From a virus (Duplodnaviria > Caudoviricetes): a DNA stretch of 64,000 nucleotides. The translations under genes were made by a program, and so were the position numbers. A model generated the notes under the pieces. That model was not told the origin of the DNA and did no database searches. It worked only from the letters and a program-made list of their open reading frames with translations. The DNA is taken from positions 146,570 to 210,569 of IMG/VR virus record IMGVR_UViG_3300037067_026010; one strand, 5' to 3'. Below are positions 9,444-64,000 of this stretch, piece after piece (the first letter of the stretch is position 1; every line of letters begins with the position of its first letter).

Positions 9444-10337
9444 TTAAACGGGATCGGCGGAAGGCATGCGAATACTCCGAGTATGCCGGCGTCCCGCGCC
9501 GGTCGCAGCTGCCTCGGCCTCTCGCCGTTGCAGCGTCGCCTCGTAACAGCTCGACGCGTGCGTGATCAGCTCGTCCAGCCGCCGCATATTTTCCGTGGCC
9601 TCATCGCGCATGCCCTCCATAGCAGCCCGCGCCACGCGCAGGTCTTCGATCATTTCCGGCGTCCACGTCTCGGGCGGCGCCGACATAATATCGTGGAACG
9701 CATTGATCTCCGTGCCATTCCAGGCTTGCCGCTGTTTTGCCAGCCACTTTTCGGTGTCGTCCCGAATTTGCCGTATTTTGCTCGGTACGGTGGGTGGTAA
9801 TTTGAATGTGGGGCCATGCGGGGAAGTCACCGCCGGTCCGTAATGTTCCTTGATGCGCCGATGCAGCTCCGGCGGTGCCCATAATCCGCGAACCGCGCGT
9901 TTGGCCCACATACGCCGTTTGTCCGGCGTTTTGAGAATCAGCAGATAAGAGACGTGCCCCCAGTGCAACTGAAAGCCGGTCTTGTCGCAATGCAACTCCA
10001 GGAGTTCTTGCAGGGCTTCTTTCGTGTAGGCCTGCGTAAATGACGCCGCTTTACGCAACTGCCGCGCGTGTATTGCCAAGGCCTGCTCCAACAGCCGCAT
10101 GGCACTTTCGCCGTATTTGTCGGGGTCATCCTGCACTTCCGTGCACAGCTTGCCTAGGTCGTAGTAAAACCGCAGCGTCGTTTGCCGCCCTTCGTCCAAT
10201 TGCCGCTGGATGATGTTGAACTTCTTGCGAAGCTCCTTGTTCATCATCTGCAGCGCCTCCTCGCGGGCTTGCACGATTTGCGCGGCATCCAAGGTGGCGC
10301 GGCGCTGCGCCTGCGCAGCGGGCGATATACGTACCAT
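9444..10337 (-). CDS. hypothetical protein, N-terminal half DUF1016_N/YhcG-like
   Basis: FYYDLGK...LHWGHVSYLL...RRMWAKRAVRGLWAPPELHRRI resembles the DUF1016 N-terminal pattern. Confidence 0.6.
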   Translation of the reverse strand: MVRISPAAQAQRRATLDAAQIVQAREEALQMMNKELRKKFNIIQRQLDEGRQTTLRFYYDLGKLCTEVQDDPDKYGESAMRLLEQALAIHARQLRKAASFTQAYTKEALQELLELHCDKTGFQLHWGHVSYLLILKTPDKRRMWAKRAVRGLWAPPELHRRIKEHYGPAVTSPHGPTFKLPPTVPSKIRQIRDDTEKWLAKQRQAWNGTEINAFHDIMSAPPETWTPEMIEDLRVARAAMEGMRDEATENMRRLDELITHASSCYEATLQRREAEAAATGAGRRHTRSIRMPSADPV

Positions 10338-10349
10338 GATCTTCGTTCC

Positions 10350-11480
10350 TTATGAAAAACGGTCTTGTAATAAAAGTGAAAACGCGGCCTGCTCCGTGTG
10401 AACACGCCGTCTGGGGTCGAGTTTCCTTGCCAAGCGCACAAGGACGGCATACAAATCGAGCTGCGTTCGCATTCCCCAAACGGACTCGGGACGTTGCAAT
10501 CGTTGCTCGGAGGCGTCCGCGCGGCTGCCCAGAAACAGCGTATGCTCCACGGCGTCTCGCGCAATACTCGCCTGCACGCCCAAATGCACCAGCATTCGCA
10601 CCAAGCATGCCATCCTGGCCTTGCGTTCCACATCCCCCAACCCCGCAAAGCCCAATGGCGTCGACGCCAAACGGTCGGCGCCTTGCTGCAATTGCGTCAC
10701 GGTAGGATTTTTACCGAGCATCCTGCTTATCATGCCGCGAAGCCGAGGTCCGAACGAGTTGCCGGTGTGGTTAAGGCGCCATCCGGCGCGTTTATAGCTG
10801 TCCAAGCTCACGCCGTGTCTGCAGTAAAGCGCGGCGGTGCCGTGCACGGCTGTACCGCATGCTTCGCCGTTTCCGAAATAGTAGCCGAGGTAAAATGGCC
10901 AGGCGTCCGCTTGCTGCAACCGGAAACACGGCTCATGGCTACGATACCATACGGCCATACGGCGACCCAGGATGGCCGCAGCGTAGAATTGCATATCCGA
11001 CCTGGTTTCGGCAATAATTTGCTCCAGAATCTCAAAATATGCGCAGTTGTCCAGAAATCGCTGCTGTGCCCCGACGAGCCCTTCAATAAGCTTGTCGTCG
11101 TGGTTCAACAACAGCCGGTACGGCGCCACAAGCGCATAGCGCAGCCGCAATACGTCTTTAAACATCTGCACGGCCGTCGGGCCATCGCAACTGCGTTCCT
11201 GCTCGCGTTGACGTCGGGTGTAGCCGGCAATGTCTGTCAGCGTACGTCCGAGACCATTGCTCAACACGTTCGTCAACTGCAGAAATGCCGTACGCGTGTA
11301 CCGGTAGCCGGCTGCCGTCTCCCCCGAGCTCCTTAACTCCAGCTGGTACGGCGAACTTATGGTCGCAATATCACTAACGCGCACGAGCCGCCGCAGCCGC
11401 TCCAGCAGCAATTCCCGCTGCGTACGGTCAAATACGTAGCTGGAGGGGCGCACGAACAGCGTTGACAGCGCATCAGTCAT
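10350..11480 (-). CDS. DUF932-like phage protein
   Basis: AFLQL, LDN, GYYFGNGEACG...YCRHG and HTG resemble DUF932 motifs. Confidence 0.55.
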   Translation of the reverse strand: MTDALSTLFVRPSSYVFDRTQRELLLERLRRLVRVSDIATISSPYQLELRSSGETAAGYRYTRTAFLQLTNVLSNGLGRTLTDIAGYTRRQREQERSCDGPTAVQMFKDVLRLRYALVAPYRLLLNHDDKLIEGLVGAQQRFLDNCAYFEILEQIIAETRSDMQFYAAAILGRRMAVWYRSHEPCFRLQQADAWPFYLGYYFGNGEACGTAVHGTAALYCRHGVSLDSYKRAGWRLNHTGNSFGPRLRGMISRMLGKNPTVTQLQQGADRLASTPLGFAGLGDVERKARMACLVRMLVHLGVQASIARDAVEHTLFLGSRADASEQRLQRPESVWGMRTQLDLYAVLVRLARKLDPRRRVHTEQAAFSLLLQDRFS

Positions 11481-11493
11481 AAGTGTTCTGCCG

Positions 11494-12063
11494 TTACAAT
11501 TCAGCCCAGTCCGTACCAATGCTAAAAAGGAATTCTTTTAGCGGGTCAATAACGTAAACCACCGGCGGATTGCCGTAAGGTCGAACGATACGCGTGTTGC
11601 GTTCGTACCGTAACGAAGGGTCCGGTACTTCCGCCACCTCGATCGGATAGTTATGCAGCACCATCGTACCCGCCGTGGGGATATGCGGCCATGCGAACAC
11701 CAGGCCGATGCGCTCGTCCGCGTCACTCGCGTCCATGTCCACCTGTAGGTCCACATAGGCCCGCATCATCGGCGTTTTCATAAAGCCTGGGCCGAACAAC
11801 TCGCCCAGCTGCACTTTGTGTATATTCGCCAACTTGCGGGCACCAAGACGCACCGGGAAGCGCGGAAAACGCTGATTGAACCAGGGTAGGGTCAATTTAG
11901 CCCCGCGCTGAACTTCCGACGATTCTTGCCGCAATCGCCCAATCTGCGCGCCCAGGCCGCCGGTACGCAACAGCTGCGCCACCACGGCATCCTCGAAGGT
12001 GTCCTGCCGCTGCGTCTCGCGTTGGCTCCATTGCTCCTGCGTATCACCAAATAAACCGCCCAT
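11494..12063 (-). CDS. hypothetical protein
   Basis: 189-aa ORF in the operon. Confidence 0.65.
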   Translation of the reverse strand: MGGLFGDTQEQWSQRETQRQDTFEDAVVAQLLRTGGLGAQIGRLRQESSEVQRGAKLTLPWFNQRFPRFPVRLGARKLANIHKVQLGELFGPGFMKTPMMRAYVDLQVDMDASDADERIGLVFAWPHIPTAGTMVLHNYPIEVAEVPDPSLRYERNTRIVRPYGNPPVVYVIDPLKEFLFSIGTDWAEL

Positions 12064-12086
12064 GAACTTTTCCGATGTTTAATTGT

Positions 12087-13511
12087 TTATGGCACAACAT
12101 CTTCAGGATCGACGTCCTGCTCCGCCGGTCCTGCTACATCCGGCACTTCGGGAACTTCACATTCGTCGGTGCCGGTCGGTTGCAACTGCGGCATATTTTC
12201 TACACGCTCGTACAGATCAACGCCGGCTGTGCCTTCGGAAACCACCGCCTCGGCCAATAGCCGCCGGAAGTCCATGCCGGGCTGAAACGGAATACGCGGG
12301 GTTATACCGAGCAGCGGGTACATCGCCTGCAACAGGTCGGGCCGCTGCTCCAGTTTGCTGCCCAGCACGCGAAATTCCTGCGGGTCGCTCTCTGGTACCC
12401 CTAGCGCCCGGCTCCAGCCTGTGCGATTACCCTTGTTTGCCACGCGAATATCGCAAACGTCCATCAAGTGATTATAGATCGTTCGCTTACCCTTCATATT
12501 TTCAAATGACAATAGCAGCTCAATCGATGCCGTATCCCAGTCCCAGGCCGTCTGTTGTCTGAAGCCCTGACGACCCTCCGCGTCCTGATACTCCGTTAAC
12601 CACCACAGCAATTCTGCGGTTATGCGCTTCCGCGACGGACCTAAGCTATTCTTGCGCAGGATAATGCTCAAACGCAGGCCGCCATACTCCAACCGATCGA
12701 TGTCACAGCCGGGCGCTTTGTGCATCTCTACCTCGAATACTTCCATGAATTTTACCGATTTCCCGCCACCGATATTGTTTACCGGCCGGCCCATATAATC
12801 GGTAGACGGCTTCAAGTGATTCGTACCGAGCACGGAAAACGGGTAAGTTTTGATGGCATTCGGCATTGTTCTCATATACTGCGATATCAGCAAAGCGGCC
12901 AGCGCGAAGTCCCGCGAAGCATGCCCGGCTTCGAGGATCTTCTCCAACTGTGCCCTGGGCGCCGTACCCATGATCGAATCGATGCCGAAAGCAATAGGAA
13001 TAGTCCGGCCTGGCCCGTCCGGGGAATCCTGATACCGAGCTGCAATCTGCGTAAACGCCGTTAGGGCGTCCATCCAATCCTCCAACGTGTGCGTATAGAC
13101 AACTTCTACACGGTTTAACCAGGACTGGTTCCAGCCCAGAAGGGAGCCGCGCAGCTCGGGGGCATCCTTCCCTTCGTTTTCGACAAATACCGCGCCGCCA
13201 CCGTAGACGAGGTGCCATCGGAAAACTTCATTCATGAAAGCCGTTTTGCAACAGCCCTCCTCCCCAGTGATCTGCGCGATCGTGCCCAGCGGATACATCG
13301 TAGATTGAAATAAATAACGTAATGCCAATGCCGGCAGCGGCAAGCCGACGCGCGGGCCGCTCGCCGAAGCCACGCTTACCGACAAACCCGTAGCGCGTTT
13401 TCCCTCGTCGCTCATGGCGAGAAACATCCCATTAAGCTGTGTCTCGCGGTTTGCACCCTGCCATAATTGCTGGCGCCGCGCCAGTTCCGCCCGTGTTGCT
13501 GCCTTGGCCAT
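12087..13511 (-). CDS. RecA/UvsX-like recombinase
   Basis: GTIAQITGEEGCCKT (Walker A variant), FVENEG, IDSIMG (Walker B), GTNHLK, GGGKSVKF, RKNSLG. Confidence 0.85.
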   Translation of the reverse strand: MAKAATRAELARRQQLWQGANRETQLNGMFLAMSDEGKRATGLSVSVASASGPRVGLPLPALALRYLFQSTMYPLGTIAQITGEEGCCKTAFMNEVFRWHLVYGGGAVFVENEGKDAPELRGSLLGWNQSWLNRVEVVYTHTLEDWMDALTAFTQIAARYQDSPDGPGRTIPIAFGIDSIMGTAPRAQLEKILEAGHASRDFALAALLISQYMRTMPNAIKTYPFSVLGTNHLKPSTDYMGRPVNNIGGGKSVKFMEVFEVEMHKAPGCDIDRLEYGGLRLSIILRKNSLGPSRKRITAELLWWLTEYQDAEGRQGFRQQTAWDWDTASIELLLSFENMKGKRTIYNHLMDVCDIRVANKGNRTGWSRALGVPESDPQEFRVLGSKLEQRPDLLQAMYPLLGITPRIPFQPGMDFRRLLAEAVVSEGTAGVDLYERVENMPQLQPTGTDECEVPEVPDVAGPAEQDVDPEDVVP

Positions 13512-13549
13512 CTGACGTACCTTTCCTTCAAAAATAATTATCCAAAAAC

Positions 13550-13598
13550 ACGGCAGGGCCGGTTCGGTGCTTAACTACCGAACCGGCTACCTGCCGTA
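13550..13598. terminator. long stem-loop (possible terminator) whose apex is the 16-bp dyad motif
   Basis: ACGGCAGG-GCCGGTTCGGT/ACCGAACCGGC-TA-CCTGCCGT, flanked by A-runs, between the SSB and recombinase genes. Confidence 0.6.
13565..13580. promoter_or_regulatory. 16-bp dyad motif, copy 2
   Basis: CGGTGCTTAACTACCG upstream of the recombinase. Confidence 0.6.
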
Positions 13599-13603
13599 AA
13601 AAC

Positions 13604-15426
13604 CTATCGCCCAGCCGCGCGTTGTGCGGCTAACAGAGCCGCTTGCGCTCGCGTAAGCCCGCCGCTCGAAGCCGCCGCAGGCACACCAACCGCTTCCGTG
13701 GGCGGCAAGGCCGCCGCGCCTTGGCTAATGCCGGCAGTAGGCGGTGTTGGCGTCATCGGCATCGCGGGTGAGTTTGGCACCGCTGCTGACGGCACCAACC
13801 CTGCGGGCGCGACTTCTGCTGCCGGTACGTATGGCGCCGTTGCCAAGCCTGCAGTGGGCGCAGCTGGCGGCACGTATGGCACCGTTGCAGGCCCTGTTGT
13901 GGGCGCTATCGGGAAATCCCCGGTCGGCAGGCCAGCTACCACAGCGGGTTGCACGGGCGCTGCAACATCAGCCTGCGGCACGCCCCAGCCCATCGCCTGG
14001 GGAGGTGCAACTGGGGGTGGCGGCATTATCGGAGCAGCTGCTGGTTGCGACTGCTGCACAGGCCAGGACGCCGCCGCGGGTACGGCCGTTTGAGGCTGCT
14101 GTCCCACCGTGCCCGGCACTGGAACTTGACTTGGCACTGGTGCCTGCACAATAGCCGGTGCCGGCATAGGTGCAGCTACTGTCCCTACCGCGGGTTGTTG
14201 CGCCGCACCGGCAATCGGTGCTCCGAACAAACCTGCCGGCGGTGCCACCGCAGCAGGCGCTGCCTCCACGCCCCACCCGGACATCTGCGGCATCGTTGCG
14301 GCATAAGGCGATGCCCCAGGGCCGCCCGACACAGGCGGAACCACCGCGGCAGGGCCGCTTACCGCGCCCACAGCCTGGCGCCGCACGCTGTCGGGAATCC
14401 ACTCAGGATGATCCCGCCAAGCATATGCAATCACGTCCGGCGGAAATTTATCCGCCAAGATTGCAGCCTGCTCCGCGATGCTCGGAAAATGCAAGATATC
14501 GTCCCAAGGACGGACCAAGCGACGGATATTATCGTGCTGCTCTGCAGGAATTATCGCGGGCATATTCAAAAACGTGTCCTCCAAGAAGCAACCGTAACCA
14601 ATCGGTGCTGCTTGGCTCGCTTGCCCCATTGCCATCTGCGACGCGGGTGCCTGCCAACCGCTGCCGGACAACCCCTGGTTGCCAGCACGTTGCGTTCGCG
14701 GATCACCGTCCGCTAAAGCGTAAAAAGTAACGAATTTCCCGATGCTCAAATCGATAGGATCACCCACCTCCATAACCTCGTGCCAATCACCATTTCCGTA
14801 GGGGCAGTTGACGCGGTATCGGTTCAATTCGTTCAGTAACGCCAAGCCAGCAGACGGGCCCAGCATCAAAACGATCGGTCGCGGGTTCGGTGCATCCAGC
14901 GGCTTGGGCGGCATATAGCTCCGCGCCTTGTGGTGCAATACCACCACCTGCATTAAGTACACCTCGCTCGGGTTCGGCAATTGCGCTCGGCGATTCCGTC
15001 CACCGGTCAGCAGAGCCGCCCACCCCGGCGGTCCTGCCCGCGCTCCACTGCGCGGCTTATGCTTTCGCGCAACAGCCACGCCGGCGTAATACGCGGATCC
15101 AGCAACACAGGGTCGGACGGGTCTCCTACGATAAAGGTAGCACCGGGATCACCCATATTACGTACCGCGGGGTAACGCCGAATCCAGTCGCCAAACGCGT
15201 TAGGTTCCGCGCTGAGCCGGTACGTATCCCATTGAGTTGCGTCATCGGGATTCAACTGTGGCAGTATTCGCACGACCGTATATCCGTCGCCATAACACGG
15301 CGACCACAAGTCCGCCATGTTATTGCGAATCAGAAAATTGCCCTGGTTCGTTGCCCGCTCGGGGTTCCCATACTGCTCAAAGGTATAACGGCGCCCGTGC
15401 GCCCGCATCGAAGGATCTCGTGGCAT
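13604..15426 (-). CDS. putative T4 gp32-like ssDNA-binding protein with long Pro/Ala/Gln tail; split by a frameshift near 15025
   Basis: 5' ORF (15007-15426) has GYTVVRILP (cf. gp32 AVIRFLP); the 3' ORF continues in the -1 frame from GWAALL; lies between polymerase and recombinase. Confidence 0.55.
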
Positions 15427-15519
15427 AAAAGGTCTCCAGTGAAATTGAAACGGCATGCAGCCGTTGATTCAAAAACGGTGTTTTTTATTGTACTGCCGAG
15501 CACACGATCCGCTAGCCCG

Positions 15520-29359: not shown

Positions 29360-30246
29360 TCGATATCGCCTCCACGCGCTAAAGTAATACAACGACTCAT
29401 GCGCAAATGCTGCGGCTCCTGGACCATTTCCGTATCACCGCTGTCCACCCATTCTCGGTAGTGCATCCGCAGTGCCCGCATCGGCGGTATTTTAAATTTT
29501 ATAGGGCAACCTTCCCAGAGCACCGGGGGTAGTGGCGCCTCCGTAGGCGTAATCTTGGCATCGGCATATATCGCCTGGCAGCACTGACATCTCCCTTGGC
29601 TGCGACATGTACCTCGGCCAATACCGCCACCGCATACGCTACAATAATGCGCCCACGGCGATGGCGCAAATGTCGTCCCGTACTCGGAAACTGCCACCGG
29701 GTTCCAGGCATAGCCGCTGACGGCATCGTGCAATAACTCCGCCGCTGGAGCACGCTCCGCTGCGCTAATGGTCTTATAGTCAGCCTTCAGCCACGCCGCG
29801 CCAACCGCCACGCGGGCCGCTATCTCGCCCGGCTGCCACAGGCAGAAACCTAGATGATATTTGCCGGTACGTGTACGCAACATTTGCGGCCACTCCTTCT
29901 CTGCGAGCCGCAAGGCCTCGGCACCGTTTCGCCAGAGCCGGACATCGCTGCCGAACCCCTCCTGCGGTGCGGCCGTTTGCACCGCGAAGGCGTAGCTTAG
30001 CTGTACGCCGGACGCCGACGTCCGCAACGAAAAAATATGCAAGCATCCGCGCACATATAGCGGCGGCCCCGCGAAATACAGCACCGTTGCCCCTTTCATG
30101 GCTCGCATGTATCGCAGTGTCCCGCGTATGCTTCCTGAGCCAAAGCCAGGTGCCACAGTTTGAATAACGTCAACCGACGCCGGCAGTGCCCGCTTCTGCA
30201 GTTCGGCTACTGCCTTTGCCGTGCGCGCATGCAGCTCTTTAGTCAT
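29350..30246 (-). CDS. hypothetical protein with CxxC pairs
   Basis: 298-aa ORF between sbcD and sbcC; CSVC...CQCC. Confidence 0.65.
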   Translation of the reverse strand: MTKELHARTAKAVAELQKRALPASVDVIQTVAPGFGSGSIRGTLRYMRAMKGATVLYFAGPPLYVRGCLHIFSLRTSASGVQLSYAFAVQTAAPQEGFGSDVRLWRNGAEALRLAEKEWPQMLRTRTGKYHLGFCLWQPGEIAARVAVGAAWLKADYKTISAAERAPAAELLHDAVSGYAWNPVAVSEYGTTFAPSPWAHYCSVCGGGIGRGTCRSQGRCQCCQAIYADAKITPTEAPLPPVLWEGCPIKFKIPPMRALRMHYREWVDSGDTEMVQEPQHLRMSRCITLARGGDIECS

Positions 30247-34464: not shown

Positions 34465-35397
34465 TTAGGACACACGTCGCCTACGGAACCGACCGTAGGT
34501 GGCCAACATCCGTGCACCGCGGAAAAGCTGCCCATCGATTTCCGTCGCAGCCCGTGCGGCAAGCAATTCCGCCGTCATGCGCACATCCCCGCTAAGTAAC
34601 TGCCTCGGATAGCGCAACGTACGAATTACCGCCTGGCATACTACGGAACGACTCGGTCGCACGTGTCGGCGGTATTTACCGCTCTCTAACGTTAATAGGG
34701 CCTTTGCCGGTATCTGGAATAACTGGCGGTGGGTGAAGCGCCAACCACTGTGGCAAGCTTCCACTGTCGTAAAAAACAAAGCGCCGCATACGGTCCCGCT
34801 GCGCACCAGCTTACGCATAACTACTGCACGTTGCTGGCAAACACTGGTCATCAGGTATCGTACCCATGCCGCCTCCGTAGGGTATCGGGAGCGTTCCTCG
34901 GCGTGCGCAGGTAGCCACGGATACACCACCACCCTGCGGCGCTCTACAAGGTGGTATGCAAATTCCGCCGTGTCGCTTAACCGGATTGCACGCATCGGTC
35001 GGCCATATTCGTCGATAGCCTCGGAGCTTCCCGGTTTGGGGAAGGCATGATCCACGCTCTCCCACAATTCCGAGGCTCTGCGAGCATAACAGAAAGGGCA
35101 CAAGTAATCCAGGCGGCAACATCGTGTTAACGGCATGGCAAATGCAAAGGTAGGGCAGCAGTTGCGCAAATACGTATTACACATGCGCGTCCCCGGTGGG
35201 TGCCATCCGCACGACATCAACGCCGACACTCGCGCGCGCCAAATCGTAAGTAAGCGGGTGGTACGGCGGCGGACACCTGCATCGTTTGTTGCAGGCCGGC
35301 CGGTCAACGGATAGAGCACCGCTGCCCGCTGCACCCGTGCTGCATAGGTATGCGGCACCCAGTCCAACTTGAACGCGATATCCGTTTTTCTGGCCAT
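34465..35397 (-). CDS. hypothetical protein resembling a degenerate rolling-circle Rep
   Basis: CCRLDYLCPFCYARR and TVEACHSGWRFTH resemble the Rep_1 zinc motif and an altered HUH region. Confidence 0.55.
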   Translation of the reverse strand: MARKTDIAFKLDWVPHTYAARVQRAAVLYPLTGRPATNDAGVRRRTTRLLTIWRARVSALMSCGWHPPGTRMCNTYLRNCCPTFAFAMPLTRCCRLDYLCPFCYARRASELWESVDHAFPKPGSSEAIDEYGRPMRAIRLSDTAEFAYHLVERRRVVVYPWLPAHAEERSRYPTEAAWVRYLMTSVCQQRAVVMRKLVRSGTVCGALFFTTVEACHSGWRFTHRQLFQIPAKALLTLESGKYRRHVRPSRSVVCQAVIRTLRYPRQLLSGDVRMTAELLAARAATEIDGQLFRGARMLATYGRFRRRRVS

Positions 35398-39558: not shown

Positions 39559-40326
39559 TCAAATACGGATAGCCCGCTGCGGCCTACCCCAGCATGCACC
39601 CGTCTCCTCGGCCAGATGCCGCTCGCAGTCTTCTAACGTCGTCTCCGCCCGGCGTAGCTGATCCTCCAGTTCGACCACGGCTTGGGCATTTACGATTGGG
39701 CTGTCCAGAAGCACTCCTGCCTCCACAAGCTCCGTAAGTTTGATATACCAGCTCTGCAAGTCCTTTAGCGCTTCGCGCGCCTTGTCCACGTGATCCACGG
39801 GCGTGTCGATGTTACCCCAGGAGTAGCACCGCTGTGGCCCTGCCAGCTCCCGCACATAGACTTCGGGACGATATTGCTTGTTGCATAACCGCTGAATGGC
39901 GGTAGCCCTGGGCACCCCGCCGTCCGGCAAGGCCATATACGCGGACACCACTGCCTCCCACGGATTGGCGGCGCCTTGCAGGCGCAGTTCCAGCTGCTGC
40001 CCATAATCCGCATCCTCGTCAAAACGAAAAGCAACTGCGTAGCCGTACTGCGGCCAAATGGGGTCGGTCTGCACCTGAATCTCGGATACGCAGCCGCGGT
40101 AAGGGCTGGGCCATTCGATATCGCAGCGGCTGCAATGCAGCCTGACTTGCCCGGCCCGCCACACTGGGGCACCTGCCACACGTGCCGCGCCCGAGATCTG
40201 CGGTTTATCGTCATGCCACACCAGTTCCGAATAAACGTGGCGCAGCTCCAGAATACCGTCCGCCGGATACCCGCAAAATAAGCACCGCGGATAGCCAAAC
40301 CAAGTATCGGTACAGATTTGTTGCAT
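39559..40326 (-). CDS. hypothetical protein with CxxC zinc ribbon
   Basis: CLFC...CSRC; AGGAG upstream. Confidence 0.7.
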   Translation of the reverse strand: MQQICTDTWFGYPRCLFCGYPADGILELRHVYSELVWHDDKPQISGAARVAGAPVWRAGQVRLHCSRCDIEWPSPYRGCVSEIQVQTDPIWPQYGYAVAFRFDEDADYGQQLELRLQGAANPWEAVVSAYMALPDGGVPRATAIQRLCNKQYRPEVYVRELAGPQRCYSWGNIDTPVDHVDKAREALKDLQSWYIKLTELVEAGVLLDSPIVNAQAVVELEDQLRRAETTLEDCERHLAEETGACWGRPQRAIRI

Positions 40327-40763: not shown

Positions 40764-40989
40764 CTCCTTCCGCGTCCTCCTCTGCCCGATGTCGCGCCCT
40801 GGCCTGAAGCTTTAAATGCGTCTGCCAACGCTGGTCCGCCTCCTTGTGGCCGCGCGTTACTGCTTGTTTTAACAATTGCGCCCCCAAGGTGTTCATCGAT
40901 CGCTCCTTCGCATATGCCAACCGTTTAAACTCCTTATAAAGCTCGATCGGCAGGCGCAGCGTGAGCACTGCCTGCTGTTTATCCGCCAT
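40747..40989 (-). CDS. Arc/ribbon-helix-helix DNA-binding protein
   Basis: LTLRLPIELYKEFKRLAYAKERSMNTLGAQLL is an Arc-like signature. Confidence 0.8.
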   Translation of the reverse strand: MADKQQAVLTLRLPIELYKEFKRLAYAKERSMNTLGAQLLKQAVTRGHKEADQRWQTHLKLQARARHRAEEDAEGDDDDY

Positions 40990-41806
40990 CTGTACGCGTT
41001 CCTTTCTGGCTCGATGTCTTCGCTAAGGTGTTCTCTAGGGTAATAGCCCGCGTGCGATCTGCGGCATGTTTCCGCTGATTCCACGCCGCGATAGACGCGG
41101 CACGCCACGCCTCCAGTTCTGCTTTTGCGGACAGTAACCTTTCGCGAGTTATCCCGAACGATGCCATACCTTGGCCGGCAGGCGTCGTAAGCGAGGCTTG
41201 TGCCGAGGCCAAGGCCCGCGCAAGTTTTGCATATTGGGCACTTTGTTGGGCCGGCGTGCCTATCTGGGAAGGTGCAACCGGCACGAGACCGTCGACGCGC
41301 CAGACGCTGATATTTGCCTCGGCTAGGCAGGTTTCCACAGCGGCAAAGGCCGCGGCGTTATCACCGGCGAATGACTGCAGGGCGTGGGTAAGCAGCGCCT
41401 CCAACGGGCTTATTGCCTTTATACGGCGCAAGGGGTCTGCCGTGCCATTGCCCCATATTGCAGAAACCAACCACTCAGTCGGGGAAGGTGCAGCATCCGC
41501 AGTATGAATAGCATAAGCCGGAGTCGCAGAGACAACGGTATCAGCGGGCTCGTCGATATACGTCGTCCCCCACTGCCGATAGCATTGTCCGCACACCAAT
41601 ATGCAGTCATCTTGGTCAATTGGCTCTACCGTTTCTTGCGACTCCCAGAATACTTCCGTTTCCCCGGAGTGTTCGGCATTCATCTCCTCGTCAAAGGTGA
41701 GGCAGGCCATGCCGCATAGTGTCTCCAGCGTACCGCCAGCTGGTGCACCACAGAACGGGCAGTGTGGGTCACGAAATTGCATCAAGTGTCTCCATAAGCT
41801 TGCCAT
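40979..41806 (-). CDS. hypothetical protein with CxxC zinc ribbon
   Basis: CPFCG...CGQC; N-terminus resembles that of 39559-40326. Confidence 0.7.
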   Translation of the reverse strand: MASLWRHLMQFRDPHCPFCGAPAGGTLETLCGMACLTFDEEMNAEHSGETEVFWESQETVEPIDQDDCILVCGQCYRQWGTTYIDEPADTVVSATPAYAIHTADAAPSPTEWLVSAIWGNGTADPLRRIKAISPLEALLTHALQSFAGDNAAAFAAVETCLAEANISVWRVDGLVPVAPSQIGTPAQQSAQYAKLARALASAQASLTTPAGQGMASFGITRERLLSAKAELEAWRAASIAAWNQRKHAADRTRAITLENTLAKTSSQKGTRTDGG

Positions 41807-43945: not shown

Positions 43946-43946
43946 A

Positions 43947-46411: not shown

Positions 46412-47386
46412 CTACTCAGCCTTAGCCTTGTCAAGGCCATGATAGTAAGTCTTACCCCTCCATAGGGCTACAGACTTTCTTCTAGGGATTTTATAGCGGC
46501 GCTCATAGGCCGATAGTCCGAGATACGGCCAGTCCTGTCCATGCAGGTTCTTCTGCAACCGCTCACGATATTTCTCTTTTGACGTGCAGCCGCCATATCG
46601 GCGTAGGCTAGGGGGTTGGCCCTGCACGATGAAACCGTCAAGCTCCAGTTCGTGAATCACCTGCGGTATAACGTCTTCCAACAGCACTGCTTCAGCGTCG
46701 TCTTCGTTATTAAAACCGCCAAGGCTGTCCTCATAGCACTTGCCGTCGGCGGCTGTCCATTTGGCAACCGCACTATACCAGTGCCAGCCATCTTTACGCC
46801 AATCGCGAAGCTGTGATATGGTCTGCCGTTTATTTACGGCACATAATTCTGCAGCGACCTGCCGCGAAGCACCACGCGCCCTGTAATACTGCAACAGTCC
46901 CCGTTGTGCAGCGTCGTCGAGGACAATGCGGAAGAATTCGCAGGCATTTGTGTCATAATAGGTGGCATTGCTTGCTTTAAAGTGGTCAGTAGCCTGCGCG
47001 GGTATTACGTAGCAGTGACTGGTGTCGTCGAGATGCCGCTGGAAATTTTCGCAGGACTGCAGCGTATGTTCCCAGCCCTCACACTCCTCCCAGGGGGGAG
47101 ATGTATAGTAATCATCTTCCTCGACGTGCCCGCGGGCTGCCAGTGCCGCGTAGGGTACGATGGCGGACATCTCGTAGTATTCCGACGTTTGGCGCGTATG
47201 TTCAAAATAGGCGTCCTGTTCTGACCCGTGCTGCCGTAGCACGGACTGGCATTTGACAAACAGGCGATCCCCGACGCGCCATCGCTGCTCGGCGCAATGC
47301 GGCGTAATATTCTCATAAGACCAATCCCCTTTCGGTGGCGCCAGTTCCTCGGACGGGATGGTTATACTCCTAGGCTGTCTCTGCAT
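46412..47386 (-). CDS. hypothetical protein
   Basis: ~324-aa ORF, GGAG upstream of MQRQPR. Confidence 0.7.
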   Translation of the reverse strand: MQRQPRSITIPSEELAPPKGDWSYENITPHCAEQRWRVGDRLFVKCQSVLRQHGSEQDAYFEHTRQTSEYYEMSAIVPYAALAARGHVEEDDYYTSPPWEECEGWEHTLQSCENFQRHLDDTSHCYVIPAQATDHFKASNATYYDTNACEFFRIVLDDAAQRGLLQYYRARGASRQVAAELCAVNKRQTISQLRDWRKDGWHWYSAVAKWTAADGKCYEDSLGGFNNEDDAEAVLLEDVIPQVIHELELDGFIVQGQPPSLRRYGGCTSKEKYRERLQKNLHGQDWPYLGLSAYERRYKIPRRKSVALWRGKTYYHGLDKAKAE

Positions 47387-54321: not shown

Positions 54322-54325
54322 CTCA

Positions 54326-54562
54326 TCAACAGCCCGGTAATTTATCGGCGACTGTCGCCTCCGGCGAACTGCCGGACTGTTTACGTAAATGTAGCGTATC
54401 TAACAGCTGCTCTATCTGCTGTATGGCGGCTGGCGATAGGCCGAGCTTCGTAAGATCCTCAGTTGCCAGCGTTTCTAGGGTATGTATTCCCGCCTTCCGC
54501 AATCTGGACAAAGCACCAGGCGGCAAAGGCAATGTACCCAGCGGTTGAAATGTATGAACCAT
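54326..54562 (-). CDS. small helix-hairpin-helix protein resembling RNAP alpha C-terminal domain
   Basis: LPLPPGALSRLRKAGIHTLETL...LGLSPAAIQQIEQLL. Confidence 0.55.
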   Translation of the reverse strand: MVHTFQPLGTLPLPPGALSRLRKAGIHTLETLATEDLTKLGLSPAAIQQIEQLLDTLHLRKQSGSSPEATVADKLPGC

Positions 54563-54596
54563 GATGCCACATTAAAAATAAAACGGATCACACGAT

Positions 54597-54881
54597 TTAA
54601 TCGAGATCGTCGTCATCGTCATCGTCGTCGTCCCAATCTTCATCGTCTTCATCATCATCCCAATCGTCATCTTCCTCGTCATCCCAATCGTCGTCATCCT
54701 CGAGGCCATCCCAGTCGTCATCGTCGTCGAGATCCTCGTCGTCGAGATCCTCGTCGTCGAGATCCTCGTCGTCATCAGGCTCCAACGGGTCCTGCTCGGC
54801 AACCGCGGTCATGCCGAAAGCTTCGGGGTGGTCCTTCGGGTCCAGATCATCTTGCATCAACGGGTAATGGCAGTGTTCCAT
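54597..54881 (-). CDS. extremely acidic small protein
   Basis: 94 aa; C-terminal half is almost only D/E with periodic L/W; GGTG upstream of ATG 54881. Confidence 0.6.
   Translation of the reverse strand: MEHCHYPLMQDDLDPKDHPEAFGMTAVAEQDPLEPDDDEDLDDEDLDDEDLDDDDDWDGLEDDDDWDDEEDDDWDDDEDDEDWDDDDDDDDDLD
54721..54773. repeat. 15-bp tandem repeat x3.5 (encodes DEDLD)
   Basis: TCGTCGTCGAGATCC at 54721, 54736 and 54751. Confidence 0.9.
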
Positions 54882-58765: not shown

Positions 58766-58943
58766 TTTGCAATTTTTCTTGCGCCGTAGGTAGTTCGTCT
58801 CGGAGCACGCGAACGCATTTAGGGGCATCTATCGCAAGCCTGACGGCTTGCCCGCGTAGTTCGTGTACGCTTATACGAATTACCATGCCTGTTTCATCGT
58901 AAAGAACAAGGCCCTCTTGCACGCGACGGGATAATACTAACAT
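58716..58943 (-). CDS. csrA: carbon storage regulator CsrA-like RNA-binding protein
   Basis: MLVLSRR...IRISV...VRLAIDAPKCVRVLRDEL. Confidence 0.88.
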   Translation of the reverse strand: MLVLSRRVQEGLVLYDETGMVIRISVHELRGQAVRLAIDAPKCVRVLRDELPTAQEKLQTIAVDRLQPTRSDPQQ

Positions 58944-59761
58944 TCTTTGTCTTCCTGGAGGGTTAGATTGATGACGCGTGTTCGCAAGTCCCGCGCGATA
59001 TCGGGCACTGCGTCGGCTGCTGCGTGCGGCGTCCGGATCTCGTAGCGGGCTACGAGCCGTATCAACCACGAAATTATGGTTGTAACTTCTGCGGTAGCGC
59101 ACTGCTCACTTGCAACAACCTGTCCGTCCTGCAGCAGCCGTCCCGTGTAGTACAACGGGCGGTCAGCAGCGGGCCTTACCGACGTAAACATGCTGGTCCT
59201 CGCAATAAGTATGACCACCAGGACACTTTGCGTCAGCTGCAAGTTTAACTGCCTGTCCGTGCAGTCGAGACCGCCTGCTGAAGCATTGCTGGGATGTGGG
59301 TCGGGATCCGGAAAAATACGCGGCACCTCGGTTTCTCCGGCGGCAGGAGGCACCAGTGCTGGCAAGTGTACGCCTGCGTGATGCAAAGCACCCAATGCCA
59401 GTATGATCGGCTGCAGCATGCGAGCGGCCATCTGGGAGAGCCTCGCCTCCTCGTGCTGGTTGATGCCGTCCCGCCGTTGTATAGCACAACGTTCTTGGTC
59501 TAAGTGGGCAAGTACGCCATCTCGTGACCATCTGACTCCTGGCGTTAAATCGTTCCAATCGCAAGTGGGCCTCTCCGTAGATAGAAACCGATCAATTTGA
59601 TGATCCGTATACCCTGCCTGCTCCAGTTGCCACCGGAGGCCCCGCAGTGCCAACACGGAAATACTTTGCGGTTTCGGGATGTCGGCTGGCCATGGCTCGG
59701 CAAGGCATGACTTGAGCCACCGGCGGCGCTCTGCTTCTGCGTGCGATACTCTTTTTGTCAT
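58937..59761 (-). CDS. hypothetical protein
   Basis: 274-aa ORF coupled to its neighbours. Confidence 0.7.
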   Translation of the reverse strand: MTKRVSHAEAERRRWLKSCLAEPWPADIPKPQSISVLALRGLRWQLEQAGYTDHQIDRFLSTERPTCDWNDLTPGVRWSRDGVLAHLDQERCAIQRRDGINQHEEARLSQMAARMLQPIILALGALHHAGVHLPALVPPAAGETEVPRIFPDPDPHPSNASAGGLDCTDRQLNLQLTQSVLVVILIARTSMFTSVRPAADRPLYYTGRLLQDGQVVASEQCATAEVTTIISWLIRLVARYEIRTPHAAADAVPDIARDLRTRVINLTLQEDKEC

Positions 59762-60375
59762 TATTCCGCCTTTCCGATCGAAATAGCCCGTAACTGCTTG
59801 CCGTAATAGGTATCAGGCGGCTCCAGCTGCTCCGCCAAGAACGGCCGAAGTGTCTTCGACTGTTCGGCAGCTGCCGGATCACGCCACGGTGTATAACCAT
59901 CTAAGGTATTGCGCCTGTCCAGTACGTATTGCTGGAGATACTGGAACACGTCGGGCGGAAAAGTAAAACCGCGCCGTATCGCCTCTTGGAGTAAGGCGCG
60001 AAACAACGGTTGATCCCGCAACCATAGGCATCCCGCCAGTGCCGCGCAAAACTCGCTGGCTGCCCCGGAGGCTTCCCACAGCGCCGCGCTATTACGGACT
60101 GCCCAGTTTATTGTTTCCCAAAGCAAGCCGTCTTCGAGCTCGTCGATCGGCCAGGACAGGATATTGCCGTTACGGCCCGGCGTCCTCCAGCATGTTGCAT
60201 CCTGCCATTGTACACGGAACGGGGTTTGCGCTTGCGAGCGTGTCCGGGCCGCCGCCTGTTGCCGCTCCGTTATCAGTCCGCCGTAGGCCGCCCGGCGGCG
60301 TATGAATTCCGCCGTGTGGTTGTCCTGGGTCATCACAGCCCTCCATCCGAATTGCTCTAGGTTGTTTTGCGCCAA
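59761..60375 (-). CDS. hypothetical protein
   Basis: ORF in the run; likely start MTQDN after GGAGG. Confidence 0.7.
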   Translation of the reverse strand: MAQNNLEQFGWRAVMTQDNHTAEFIRRRAAYGGLITERQQAAARTRSQAQTPFRVQWQDATCWRTPGRNGNILSWPIDELEDGLLWETINWAVRNSAALWEASGAASEFCAALAGCLWLRDQPLFRALLQEAIRRGFTFPPDVFQYLQQYVLDRRNTLDGYTPWRDPAAAEQSKTLRPFLAEQLEPPDTYYGKQLRAISIGKAE

Positions 60376-61168
60376 CGCCGTATTTTGTCATATCGTATGT
60401 TATAGCAGATTGTGCAACCAGGTCGGCATGGCGCTGTTGTGCCTCCCGTAGCGCCACGTGCAGCGCTTCCTCGCGTTGCTGAAGGTCGGCATGGCGCTGT
60501 TGTGCCTCCCGTAGCGCCACGTGCAGCGCTTCCTCGCGTTGCTGATTGGCGTTTATAAGTTCCCGCATGCGGACGGTGTAGTCCGCCTGCAGCCTGTTCA
60601 GGCACACCGCCTCTGCCTGTGCTGCTTCGACGTGCAGCTGCGACCGTATGGCGGTAACAAGCGGCTGAATCGCCGAATCCAAAACGCTCCGGTCAGCCAA
60701 GCGGTAGCGGCTTAGTAATTTTAACGCTTTAGCTACAACCTTGCTCGCCTCCTTCCGCTCTTGCTGCTCTTGCAGATAATGCGCTAATGTTTGCAGCCGC
60801 GCACCGTCGGTATCTACCGGAGAACGTCTCCGATTTGCCGGCAACCAACAGTCTCGGAAAATGTAAGATTTGCCTTGCCACGACAGTATCCAGACGCCTC
60901 TGCGCAGACTAATGGACATTCGCGGACCAAATTCCCCCATGCGCCTAAGCGTCGTCTGCGTCTGCCAAGTCCCAGCCTGCAGGCGTACGGCCCCGTTTGG
61001 CGTATAGGTGATGATGTCCGTTGCGTAAAGCCGTACGACAAGTACGGGGACGTTAGGGGCGAGATTCGCCCGCAGCAGTTTAGTATTCGGCGCAAGCCGG
61101 CGGTGGCTTTCAGGATGTCGACCACGTTTTAGCCAGTCCTGTGCCTCTTCGTAACTATGAATTCCCAT
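60170..61168 (-). CDS. hypothetical protein with duplicated coiled-coil segment
   Basis: 332-aa ORF. Confidence 0.7.
   Translation of the reverse strand: MGIHSYEEAQDWLKRGRHPESHRRLAPNTKLLRANLAPNVPVLVVRLYATDIITYTPNGAVRLQAGTWQTQTTLRRMGEFGPRMSISLRRGVWILSWQGKSYIFRDCWLPANRRRSPVDTDGARLQTLAHYLQEQQERKEASKVVAKALKLLSRYRLADRSVLDSAIQPLVTAIRSQLHVEAAQAEAVCLNRLQADYTVRMRELINANQQREEALHVALREAQQRHADLQQREEALHVALREAQQRHADLVAQSAITYDMTKYGVGAKQPRAIRMEGCDDPGQPHGGIHTPPGGLRRTDNGAATGGGPDTLASANPVPCTMAGCNMLEDAGP
60420..60545. repeat. perfect 63-bp tandem duplication (21 aa QQREEALHVALREAQQRHADL)
   Basis: 60420-60482 identical to 60483-60545. Confidence 0.95.
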
Positions 61169-61231
61169 GAGTTTGCTTGGTTGTACACAGCCACCGTCCG
61201 GCAGCGCTGGCCGCCGGACGGCGCGAAGCGG

Positions 61232-62203
61232 TTAAATGTTCAAATAACGCAGTTGCCTGCCGTAACGTTCCACGAACTCTTGTCGCTGTGTTTCATCAGA
61301 GGCTTCGGCAATAACGCTGTCAAGCAAGGCCGTAAAGCCGTTCCTGGCTGCCGTGATACTGTCGAGGTCTTTGGCAACGGTAATATTCATACGCCCCTCC
61401 AGTTCCGTAATGGTCTGCATAAGCGTCTCGTTTGGCACGAGCATGAAATCACGCACTTTCGCCAGCGCCTCACGCACCGGCCCAAAGCTGCGCGTCGTAA
61501 CTCGCCCATCACGGTCGATAAGCTCCCGCAAGCTCGACAGCTTGCCGACAAGCTGGTCCAATGGATCTTCCACTAAGGCGCGTACGGCGTCGCCCACAGC
61601 GCGGGCCACCGAGGTGCGGACAAGCTCCTGGTTGGCCTCGAGATCCTGCAAAGACACAGCGGACGGCTCTCCGGCCGCGTGCGCCAGCTGGATAGGTATG
61701 ACATCCAGATAGAACTTGGCTCGCATTTCGATCTGGTCTTTTGGCACCTTCTTGACGATATGTTTCCAGATGGCAGGGTCGGCGCTTTCGCGGATTTGTC
61801 GGATAACGTCCTCGAAATCGCGTATAAAGGCGGCGACCGTCGCAGTTTGGTCGCGGCGAATGTCGTCAATAGCCGACAGGAAGGCGATGCCTACGCGCTC
61901 CGGCACCAGCCGCACCCCGATAATCGGGAAAGGCACGCTGTACCGATCCAAGACCGCGCTCAGGCGCGACTCCAGCCGATCGAAGCGTTTCTTCCACGCC
62001 GCTCCGGTCCCATCGACCGGGCAGGTATCTGACATGAGCTTCGTACACGGCGTTGTTATTTTTTTAGTATCGACGGTGTTGCCGGCGAGTTCTACCGTAA
62101 CCAGTTCCTTGGGGAGCTGGTAGCGTCCTTTCCAGGAGCCGATCGACGGCGCCATCAGCAGGACTTTATCTGCGACCTGCCGGGTAGCGGGTTCAGTAGC
62201 CAT
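61232..62203 (-). CDS. DUF3150-like protein
   Basis: SIGSWKGR...FDRLESR...YSVPF..GVRLVP pattern; lies in the Ycf46-type cluster. Confidence 0.6.
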   Translation of the reverse strand: MATEPATRQVADKVLLMAPSIGSWKGRYQLPKELVTVELAGNTVDTKKITTPCTKLMSDTCPVDGTGAAWKKRFDRLESRLSAVLDRYSVPFPIIGVRLVPERVGIAFLSAIDDIRRDQTATVAAFIRDFEDVIRQIRESADPAIWKHIVKKVPKDQIEMRAKFYLDVIPIQLAHAAGEPSAVSLQDLEANQELVRTSVARAVGDAVRALVEDPLDQLVGKLSSLRELIDRDGRVTTRSFGPVREALAKVRDFMLVPNETLMQTITELEGRMNITVAKDLDSITAARNGFTALLDSVIAEASDETQRQEFVERYGRQLRYLNI

Positions 62204-62271
62204 TCTTTTTCCTCTAACAAAACGGCCACCGAGCCCGGCCCGGCGGCCTAGGTTGGTGAAAACACAAAAAG

Positions 62272-62287
62272 CGGTAATTAAGCACCG
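62272..62287. promoter_or_regulatory. 16-bp dyad motif, copy 7
   Basis: CGGTAATTAAGCACCG, intergenic, upstream of the DUF3150-like gene. Confidence 0.6.
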
Positions 62288-62290
62288 CGG

Positions 62291-62632
62291 TTACGCAGCC
62301 GGCGTTGGAATATGTCGCTCCAGCAGCCATATTTTCTCGTCTTCCAGCGCCTCCTCCCGATTGGCGTAGGGTCCGAGGACGTCGCCGCCCGACGGTGTCA
62401 TGTCAGCCCACCAGGACATCGGATAATGGCCTCGCAGATCGACCGACGGATCCAGATGTAGCCGCATCCGTATATTTTGCCTGGCGGCGCCGCTTAGCTC
62501 CTCGACGGGTTCCACATGCGAGGCCCTGCGCGTCTCTACTTCGCCCAGGCGCCGTGACAGTTTTGCCGTAAACGGGCTATACATCGCGCGTGCTGCGCCG
62601 CCAGGACTTATAATGACAGTCTCTTTAGACAT
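62291..62632 (-). CDS. hypothetical protein of the Ycf46 cluster
   Basis: IISPGG...RRASHVEP...WWADMTP.GG.VLGPY..REEALEDE. Confidence 0.7.
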   Translation of the reverse strand: MSKETVIISPGGAARAMYSPFTAKLSRRLGEVETRRASHVEPVEELSGAARQNIRMRLHLDPSVDLRGHYPMSWWADMTPSGGDVLGPYANREEALEDEKIWLLERHIPTPAA

Positions 62633-62634
62633 AA

Positions 62635-62850
62635 TTACTCGCCCTCTCGGCGAATGCGTTCGACGCCCTGCTCGACGGCAAACATTTCCTGTGTGGCGTT
62701 ATCCGCCGTGACGCGGCCCATGGCTTCCAGGAATTTTGTAGCGGCCTGGCAAGTTTGGCCCACGAATCCGGCAGTTTCGAAAGACACTTGGCGCGTGCCC
62801 TGCGAAATTCCTATCTTGGGAATGATGGCGGTAATGGTCTTTTTAGCCAA
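62635..62850 (-). CDS. DUF2997-like small protein
   Basis: ETAGFVGQTCQAATKFLEAMG. Confidence 0.7.
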   Translation of the reverse strand: MAKKTITAIIPKIGISQGTRQVSFETAGFVGQTCQAATKFLEAMGRVTADNATQEMFAVEQGVERIRREGE

Positions 62851-62888
62851 CGGTAAACTCCGAAACGCGTTATGGTGATTTTAGGAAT

Positions 62889-62921
62889 AAAAAAAGGCTG
62901 CCCGATGTTGCGGGCAGCCTT
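62889..62921 (-). terminator. intrinsic terminator
   Basis: AAGGCTGCCCG-N6-CGGGCAGCCTT plus T-run on the minus strand. Confidence 0.75.
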
Positions 62922-62932
62922 CGACGCACTAC

Positions 62933-63307
62933 TTAGTAGCTGGCAAAAACCAGTTGGCGATCGCCGTTTTCCAAAGTCTCCTCGGACTCGACGCAGTAGC
63001 CCTGCGCGAGGGCTTGGCGCGTGGTTTCTTCCACGGCGTACTCCTGGACCAGGTCGTCCAGCATTTCCTGCTTTCCCCAACTGCCGCCGTAATTGTCGTA
63101 GGCCGCTTCTCCCGTGGTCGTATTGATGACAACCGGATACTGCCAACCTTGCAGCTTTACGCCGATGCCTTCAGCGGTTTGCCCACCGAACAGCTTATGT
63201 TTTTGCCCTTCGCGTACGCCCACGCGCTCCAAGCCCAGCTTATCGATCGCAGCGTTAAGGGCGTCGATATCGGTCATGCGAATGGAGACCTTAATAATGT
63301 GCGACAA
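62933..63307 (-). CDS. DUF1257/Ycf35-like protein
   Basis: MSHII...DIDALNAAIDKLG, GWQYPVV, YDNYGGSWG, LVQEYA. Confidence 0.75.
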   Translation of the reverse strand: MSHIIKVSIRMTDIDALNAAIDKLGLERVGVREGQKHKLFGGQTAEGIGVKLQGWQYPVVINTTTGEAAYDNYGGSWGKQEMLDDLVQEYAVEETTRQALAQGYCVESEETLENGDRQLVFASY

Positions 63308-63424
63308 AGTTTCTTATCCTTTCGTTTTAAATATTTTATGATCGTTCCTGAAGTACGATGTTTTGGGTTTACGCCCCACCGCAGAGCCCGGTGAGAAACC
63401 GCGTCAGGACACTCGACCCTGAGA

Positions 63425-64000
63425 TCAGTTCAAGGCCGCTTCCTTCTCGCCGCCGTCGGTCTGAATAGCCCGTGTTCGGGTCTTCCTGCTACGCTGCGGA
63501 GGCCGGCTTACCGGACGCGCGCGATTTTCACAGAACTCTCGAATGCTGTCGATACCCTCCTTGTCGATACGGCTGAGCGGCGTAATGGCCCCGGCTGCTG
63601 CGAGCAGTTCGCCGACGGTCGGAATGCCGCTTTGCCTATCCTGGAAAGCCGCATATCGCGCCTCGCGTACGATCTGTTCCAACTCCGCGCCGACATAGTC
63701 CTGCGTCTTCTCGATCAACTGGTCCCAATCGTCTTGCGTCAACGGCAGCCGATCGTCGGATACGCCGCGTTTACGCAGGTGGATTGCCAGGATCTGGCGC
63801 CGTTCCACTTCGTTGGGCAAATCCGTATAGAAGATATCATCGAAACGGCCGGCGCGCAAGAACTCGGGCGGGATACCCTGCGTACGATTCAGCGTCATAA
63901 TGACAAACGTACGATCGTTCTTTTCCGCCAGCCAAGTCAGCAATTGCCCGAAAACCCGGCGGGTGACGCCGGAGTCACCGGTACTGCCTGCGGCGCCGCC
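63425..64000 (-). CDS. Ycf46-like AAA+ ATPase (5'-truncated by the window edge)
   Basis: GDSGVTRRVFGQLLTWLAEK, FVIMTLN, IPPEFLRAGRFDDIFYTDLP, YVGAELEQ. Confidence 0.85.
   Translation of the reverse strand, partial: GGAAGSTGDSGVTRRVFGQLLTWLAEKNDRTFVIMTLNRTQGIPPEFLRAGRFDDIFYTDLPNEVERRQILAIHLRKRGVSDDRLPLTQDDWDQLIEKTQDYVGAELEQIVREARYAAFQDRQSGIPTVGELLAAAGAITPLSRIDKEGIDSIREFCENRARPVSRPPQRSRKTRTRAIQTDGGEKEAALN

Follow-up and report, generated by a model that had tools for sequence, protein, structure and literature searches.

Proteins of the tailed phage (Duplodnaviria; Caudoviricetes) behind IMG/VR record IMGVR_UViG_3300037067_026010, in the following G000, share a short peptide that recurs, mostly at the protein ends, in 14 unrelated carriers. 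We analysed a stretch of 64,000 nt (positions 146,570 to 210,569 of the record; the window), i.e., the final 64 kb of one 210,569-bp contig. The peptide reads (F/Y/W)-G-(R/K)-x-x-R-x-(I/V)-x-(L/I/V/M) or, in its short form, R-T-R-x-(I/V)-x-L. This motif is real, enriched at protein ends, conserved in orthologues, disordered and linked to a gene cassette around a Ycf46-type AAA+ ATPase. It is the conserved signature tail of a widespread Cdc48-like ATPase and of proteins encoded beside this ATPase. We infer partner binding from these properties and consider it probable (about 0.6) that the tail is a docking peptide for the Ycf46-type machine. Most likely, it plugs all carriers into one docking site, which is putative.

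CheckV rates the contig as 100% complete, and almost all of its genes are located on the minus strand. The gene set comprises 299 calls over the whole 210-kb genome, obtained via a codon-usage model. The ATPase gene is split over both contig ends. Joining the ends yields a single 539-codon frame, such that the record represents a circularly permuted complete genome despite its 'linear' label. Protein relatives are denoted by P-numbers (e.g., P0003, P0005) and the DNA of relatives by L-numbers (e.g., L001, L012). L012 is the closest relative with available DNA (~60% identity).

A conserved tail motif on unrelated proteins

The accepted carriers are g209, g215, g236, g246, g253, g258, g266, g269, g281, g293, the 190-aa (amino acid) protein starting at 59761 (59761 protein), g294, g295 and the ATPase (Table 1). 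The core of the 14 copies is R-x-(I/V)-x-(L/I/M), and all carriers are encoded within the non-structural 136-210 kb part of the genome. An earlier note on this DNA had listed twelve such peptides in named genes. All of them could be located in the sequence, each on the minus strand. The note was also right in stating that the codons differ and that the motif is no DNA repeat: Arg is encoded by CGG, CGC, CGA, AGG or AGA and Ile by ATT, ATC or ATA. Given these codons and flanking DNA with nothing in common, the motif is a peptide-level feature, and a DNA repeat or regulatory element was rejected. Paralogy of the carriers was rejected as well. BLASTP among them reports no pair better than E = 0.1 outside the tail, and several weak local alignments between carrier pairs are the tails themselves.

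Enrichment was assessed on the whole-genome proteome. The extended pattern [YW]G.{0,3}[RK]..R.[IL].[LIM] has 5 matches compared to 0.2 in residue shuffles. For the core pattern [RK].{1,2}R.[IV].[LIVM], 12 matches are within the last 25 residues and 27 elsewhere (rate ratio 4.8, Fisher 5.6e-5), and the reversed-sequence control gives 0 C-terminal matches. A looser pattern shows a C-terminal ratio of 2.7 (p 0.0012). In order to avoid circularity, a position matrix was trained solely on the tails of relatives and then run over this proteome. Here, 9/17 best matches end at most 18 residues from a C-terminus, where 9% are expected (p 4.6e-6). The observation of the earlier note is thus confirmed, with an about 5-fold enrichment in the last 25 residues. 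Since chance alone should yield about 2-3 C-terminal regular-expression matches, any single carrier that lacks support from orthologues is less certain. The match RGPRAIRV in the cold-shock protein g087 was counted as a false positive; it appears to be intrinsic to the fold and is presumably its last (C-terminal) strand, as in CspA.

The earlier note had made its idea hinge on conservation, and for six carrier families, among them the one with the N-terminal copy, the motif is indeed kept in orthologues. The g295 orthologues, even at 31% identity, without exception terminate in (F/Y)G(R/K)xxRx(I/L)x(L/I/V), among them 8/8 close orthologues. A profile search assigns 289 clusters to this family, and the tail is at the very end in most of the 155 representatives read. 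Within a 66-sequence alignment, the tail Arg (R319 of g295) is one of only two invariant columns. For the ATPase, 101/120 relatives keep the tail; its consensus is R-(A/S)-V-D-(L/V), after which 1-5 residues remain. Tail position 4 is Asp or Glu in most relatives and Arg, Ser, Thr or Asn in this phage.

L012 provides counterparts for further carriers. Its orthologue of the 59761 protein (52% identity) ends in EFGKARRRIQI; a 204-aa protein of L001, matched to the 59761 protein by position only, ends in EFGRALRAIDLD. The syntenic L012 counterpart of g293 ends in NTTRTRVIDISQ, i.e., with RTRVIDISQ. At 30% identity, the L012 orthologue of g281 has (M/V)APRTRVIQID at its start, which shows that placement at the N-terminus is likewise conserved. 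The orthologue of g294 contains HGKQMRPIRL, and homology stops 3 aa past this motif. Relatives have further carriers in 137-aa, 174-aa and 151-aa families.

AlphaFold predicts g295 and the ATPase with pLDDT (predicted local distance difference test) values of 90 and 88, respectively, and models both tails as low-confidence coil. The tail of g295 is thus predicted to be disordered and yet is the best-conserved part of the protein, a combination that marks docking motifs binding another molecule. In summary, the tail has the properties of a short linear motif: it is short, disordered according to the models, conserved in orthologues and present on unrelated proteins.

Some carriers have additional features. 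g215 (665 aa, genome 140442-142439, L020:442-2439, minus strand) contains a Gly/Met/Pro-rich low-complexity stretch, similar to the C-terminal region of Hsp70, followed by the tail motif. It is probably the portal protein, a lead from language-model features only (score 0.93). g266 and a long form of g269 (40979-41806) both start with a zinc-ribbon-like CxxC...CxxC segment and have a helical region and the tail at their end, without significant BLAST similarity; no homologue was found for g266 (ORFan). The open reading frame (ORF) of g294 runs on for 57 codons beyond the motif and overlaps the next gene in another frame (window 60170-60382), and the orthologous L012 ORF (L012:13337-14395) extends 83 codons beyond it. 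Just past the g294 motif, the -1 frame in G000 reads TGA TGA. The run-on could be a frameshift or early-termination device, or merely a long overlap. Finally, a reverse transcriptase gene (RVT_1) is found few genes downstream of the g295 orthologue in L012 (L012:11755-12666) and on the 227-kb contig of P0003. DNA is available for L012 alone, and its enzyme terminates in the tail motif AAGRTRRIQLR; G000 lacks a counterpart at this position.

The Ycf46-type cassette and its distant relatives

In all relatives, the ATPase is part of a constant block together with DUF1257, DUF2997, a g296-like and a g295-like protein. The DUF1257 and DUF2997 genes are located directly downstream of the ATPase gene. 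Synteny places the g296-like protein next to DUF2997 in L001, L012, L021-L023 and cultured siphophages. The window fragment of the ATPase comprises a classical AAA domain (PF00004) with its lid (PF17862). Closest in sequence among PDB entries are VAT, Cdc48 and p97 (1e-49 to 1e-43), and the whole predicted model aligns with the D1-D2 tiers of these proteins (template modelling score, TM, 0.63-0.68). Since the model aligns to D1-D2 only, it has no separate N domain; its N-terminal half is an alpha/beta D1-like tier. Walker A is absent from the first tier in the family consensus.

The affiliation of g295 with DUF3150 (PF11348) is tentative: g295 has no Pfam match at E <= 0.01, its homologue P0005 reaches 27.8 bits vs. 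a cut-off of 24.9, and the precomputed matches of other relatives are weak or faint. For the g295 model, Foldseek found no significantly similar structure in the PDB. Scans of the viral_contigs collection with g295, its alignment and the portal found no relatives.

The cassette is found in jumbo phages, cultured siphophages and plasmids. In every lineage examined, the ATPase and at least one neighbouring protein are tail-ended. Aeromonas phage HJ05 has an ATPase ending in RNRRAIRTQG and a neighbour ending in GRNRKLKL. Neighbours end in RRGRKITI in Rhodobacter phage RcTiptonus and in RKRRLRLS in Agrobacterium phage JP1, and gp051 of Rhizobium phage L338C ends in ARRAVKL. A B. thuringiensis plasmid encodes an ATPase ending in GGRTIDF and an HhH protein ending in SGRMIDF, and the ATPase of a Treponema plasmid ends in GVRKLEM. 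In Corndog, gp96 ends in KVRVLDL and gp95 contains EFRPSGRAIDF; aligned to the g295 profile, the latter matches in the tail stretch only. Since the ATPase and an unrelated neighbour are tail-ended in such distant phages and plasmids, the tail is an old attribute of the ATPase machine. AAA genes of enterobacterial plasmids were rejected as members, i.e., they belong to another family and match in the ATPase core only. L338C (L048, 3996-12563) also encodes four hypothetical proteins with tail-like ends (gp004 RRKINLD, gp009 RKVSLD, gp015 GRRLIDLSD, gp016 TRNVRI), located between its terminase and portal genes.

Further observations concern the surroundings of the cassette. A second AAA-family ATPase, g229 (window 5010-6368; PF00004, PHROG 7485 of unknown function), is without the tail motif. 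An intein with Hint and homing-endonuclease domains resides within the AAA ATPase gene of L001 (L001:6117-8690) and of P0180, P0248, P0263 and P0270. A CsrA homologue (PF02599) is encoded few genes downstream of the tail-bearing block in relatives (L001:13712-13915, L012:15558-15815, L023:11594-11806). The small protein g290 (window 54597-54881) has a C-terminal Asp/Glu/Trp-repeat stretch (DWDDEEDDDW...); its type adjoins a primase-like gene in relatives, with counterparts at L001:18052-18414 and L030:6985-7275.

Table 1. Cassette genes and motif copies of G000; positions refer to the window unless marked otherwise.
Feature	Motif	Position	Strand	Remark
ATPase, C-terminal 191 codons		63425-64000	minus	remainder across junction, genome 1-1020
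DUF1257 (Ycf35-like) cassette gene		62933..63277	minus	Pfam PF06868, 9.6e-6; without tail
DUF2997 cassette gene		62635..62850	minus	Pfam PF11211, 4.6e-6; without tail
g296-like 113-aa cassette protein		62291..62632	minus	synteny; without tail
Ycf46-like AAA+ ATPase, tail	SRKTRTRAIQT	63458..63490	minus	RTRAIQT of the earlier note
g295 (DUF3150-like helical protein, 61232..62203)	YGRQLRYLNI	61235-61264	minus	at the stop codon; orthologue-supported
g294 (ORF 60170-61168)	YGVGAKQPRAIRM	60344..60382	minus	counterpart in L012 orthologue
190-aa protein (59761-60333)	YGKQLRAISI (then gkae)	59776..59805	minus	4 aa before end; L012 orthologue
g293 (58937-59761), tail	RDLRTRVINL	58964..58993	minus	syntenic L012 protein
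g281 (46412-47386)	MQRQPRSITI	47357..47386	minus	N-terminus, provided ATG 47386 is the start
g269	AADRTRAITL	41036..41065	minus	18 aa before C-terminus; sequence match
g266 (39559-40326), tail	WGRPQRAIRI	39562..39591	minus	at the stop codon; sequence match; ORFan
g258 (34465-35397)	YGRPMRAIRL	34978..35007	minus	full extended motif, internal: residues 131-140 of 310
g253	HLRMSRCITL	29380..29409	minus	9 aa before C-terminus; sequence match
g246, DnaB-like helicase (21641-23317)	AARTRSVAL	21668..21694	minus	8 aa before C-terminus; sequence match
g236, DUF1016_N-like protein (9444-10337)	GRRHTRSIRM	9465..9494	minus	6 aa before C-terminus; sequence match
g215	YGRHLRVISL	genome 140475-140504 (outside window)		10 residues before end
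g209	ERTRVIRL	outside window		6 residues before end

A docking handle and its alternatives

The probable docking peptide is built around the core R-x-(I/V)-x-(L/I/V/F), mostly with (F/Y/W)-G-(R/K)-x-x or R-T in front, and is placed in a disordered protein end. It belongs to a mobile Ycf46-type cassette of a two-tier Cdc48-like ATPase, DUF1257 and DUF2997, joined in phages by the g296-like and DUF3150-like proteins. In the lineage of G000, the tail has been added to about a dozen further proteins, i.e., to the DnaB-like helicase, the probable portal, the DUF1016-like protein and a number of ORFans. All tails would enter one common receptor pocket on the AAA+ machine in the form of an extended peptide. 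Either the ATPase ring itself would offer this pocket, or a partner protein to which the ATPase binds via its own six tails. Docking would bring the carriers to the unfoldase, as cofactors or as clients.

The earlier note had proposed a docking peptide for a common hub. This stands in so far as orthologue conservation, end bias, disorder and unrelated carriers all speak for docking; the identity of the hub and the mechanism are what we infer. Among the hubs it had offered, an AAA+ protein fits best, given the tail on the ATPase and its neighbours, while a clamp-like ring and a capsid or compartment import factor have no direct support. Its 'phage-wide addressing code' was an overstatement, since the motif is present in about 14 of about 300 proteins, all from the non-structural part.

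Candidate receptors were assessed in three ways. First, complexes of the ATPase (residues 1-510), DUF1257 and DUF2997 with the tail end of a g295 orthologue, predicted with alignments, gave ipSAE (interaction prediction score from aligned errors) values of 0.21 and 0.16, i.e., below the mark. Second, covariation between tail position 4 and ATPase columns (95 sequences) revealed nothing above multiple-testing noise. Third, charge matching among 13 genomes suggested that the DUF1257 residue before an invariant Gly is K/R with acidic tails and Q/S/A with basic or polar tails. This lead was dropped after four new genomes, of which the 2 with polar tails fitted and the 2 with acidic tails failed (E and A).

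Several points weigh against a docking peptide for the Ycf46-type machine. Neither complex prediction nor covariation nor charge matching singled out a receptor. The tail on the ATPase sits awkwardly with a receptor role of this same enzyme. The motif of g258 is internal, and the ORF of g294 continues past its motif. For 8 of the G000 carriers there is no orthologue evidence, with 2-3 chance matches to be expected. When the whole proteomes of L338C and Corndog were scanned with a loose pattern, enrichment at the C-terminus was not significant; the tail-like ends of gp004, gp009, gp015 and gp016 in L338C are therefore leads only. Finally, Corndog keeps tails while neither hidden Markov models nor profile comparison detected DUF1257 or DUF2997, such that a rule tying tails to these two would not be universal if they are the receptor. 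This is a mild argument against either of them being the receptor.

Alternatively, the tail might be a degradation or unfolding tag, i.e., the Cdc48-like ATPase would seize the carriers at their tagged end and thread them through its pore, while its own tail would act as an autoinhibitory pseudo-substrate. The nearest solved relatives VAT, Cdc48 and p97 are unfoldases, the tails are terminal and disordered, and basic-hydrophobic C-terminal tags are known to act in this way, e.g., the tail of MuA recognised by ClpX. However, both the ATPase and its constant partner have retained the tag through very deep divergence, which fits stable docking better than turnover. Furthermore, a replicative helicase and a portal are odd substrates, and no peptidase partner was identified, where a 20S-like partner was not looked for. 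We therefore consider an unfolding tag unlikely.

It is rather improbable that the receptor is located outside the cassette. This could be a component of the virion or procapsid, with the tail as packaging signal for injected proteins, or a universally conserved host hub. The packaging variant is kept alive by g215, which bears the tail and is the probable portal (a lead only), and the candidate tails of L338C are on hypothetical proteins between terminase and portal genes. Corndog, with tails in the absence of detected DUF1257 or DUF2997, is also in line with an outside receptor. On the other hand, all G000 carriers are encoded in the non-structural part of the genome, tail and ATPase are also found together on plasmids, and the clamp motif QL[SD]LF is not matched. 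Moreover, in hosts ranging from Actinobacteria to Proteobacteria, the tail is retained solely alongside the ATPase.

That the tail is a basic peptide binding nucleic acids, either similar to an AT-hook or of the arginine-rich type, is very improbable. The motif is rich in Arg, two copies contain G-R-P, and the carriers include the helicase, the DUF1016-like protein and the HhH protein of the Bacillus plasmid. However, the invariant part is one Arg and two spaced aliphatic residues, with Asp or Glu in between in most relatives, a pattern untypical of peptides that bind nucleic acids, and the Pro is not conserved. Hardly credible at all is an origin by chance or composition, by common descent (remnant of a shared domain) or from an element of the DNA itself at gene ends: at a G+C content of 57%, Arg and Ala are frequent, the g087 match appears to be fold-intrinsic and some regular-expression matches are expected randomly, but shuffle, reversed-sequence and position tests oppose chance, the motif is conserved in orthologues at 30% identity on carriers without similarity outside the tail, and the codons differ without common flanking DNA.

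Returning to the docking peptide, a wider claim would be that the tail is the address label of the Ycf46-type machine, i.e., that a Cdc48-like phage unfoldase organises or remodels a defined set of proteins via a portable tag. We put this forward only tentatively. If true, a genome scan for the tail would list the clients of the machine, here the portal, the replicative helicase and about ten ORFans, and the tag would need no ubiquitin and could be acquired by new genes. Conservation of Ycf46, Ycf35/DUF1257 and DUF2997 extends over cyanobacteria, plastids, plasmids and many phages, and a portable tail offers a direct experimental handle on them. A tail peptide of about 10 residues could serve as bait for the receptor, and tail scans of genomes would predict the client set. 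G000 is a rich case for this: it has about 14 carriers, some with a known function and some without, and the tail is placed both C- and N-terminally. Cultured phages with the cassette (Corndog, L338C, HJ05, RcTiptonus, SM1, JP1) make the idea testable at the bench.

Comparison with known docking systems

A short docking motif for an AAA+ hub is of a known kind. As far as we found, this motif, its machine and its expansion are undescribed; literature on DUF3150, DUF1257, DUF2997 and Ycf46 in combination with phage provided no description of the tail and no mechanism for these proteins.

The MIT-MIM1 pairing of Vps4 was rejected as a match. The N-terminal half of the ATPase is modelled as an alpha/beta D1-like tier and not as a three-helix MIT domain. 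The MIM1 tail (D/E)xxLxxRLxxL(K/R) is helical, whereas the tails studied here are modelled as coil and do not match this pattern.

The sliding-clamp-binding motif QL[SD]LF is a pentapeptide found C-terminally, N-terminally or internally in many unrelated proteins. The tail resembles it in its terminal or internal placement across many unrelated proteins. In contrast, the tail has neither the Gln nor the terminal Phe but an invariant Arg, and its carriers are no replication/repair set. The earlier note had already seen that the two do not match, and in fact 0/14 copies fit Gln1, Leu2/Leu4 and aromatic5.

C-terminal HbYX/GQYL tails dock proteasomal ATPases and activators, namely PAN/Rpt, archaeal Cdc48, Mpa and Bpa. 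The likeness is a short C-terminal tail on an AAA+ unfoldase as well as on unrelated proteins, which in the HbYX/GQYL case plugs into the pockets of one partner ring. The tail described here is different in that it has no penultimate Tyr (0 G000 copies), in many cases has 4-18 residues behind it and may also be placed N-terminally or internally. Among the listed AAA tails, which are not a systematic count, only P0261 (...VGYG) has a penultimate Tyr.

Cofactors of Cdc48/p97 bind via the SHP box, VIM and the Arg-rich VBM to the N domain, and via PUB/PUL domains to the C-terminal tail. Here too, many unrelated proteins with short linear motifs are combined with one Cdc48-like ATPase that has a disordered C-terminal tail. 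In contrast to Cdc48/p97, the ATPase model lacks a separate N domain, the sequence pattern is another one, and the ATPase and other proteins carry one and the same motif.

A further comparison concerns the Ycf46 cassette itself. Ycf46-type AAA+ ATPases together with DUF1257 (Ycf35) and DUF2997 are present in cyanobacteria, plastids, plasmids and phages. For cyanobacteria, a duf2997-ycf35-fed7 cluster was noted in a review (PMC4284462). The trio of ATPase, DUF1257 and DUF2997 found in G000 is likewise encoded by Rhizobium phage L338C and by Bacillus, Geminocystis and Treponema plasmids. G000 differs in three respects: the cassette has two extra constant genes (g296-like and DUF3150-like), the acidic fourth tail residue is swapped for R, S, T or N, and the tail is spread to about a dozen other phage proteins.

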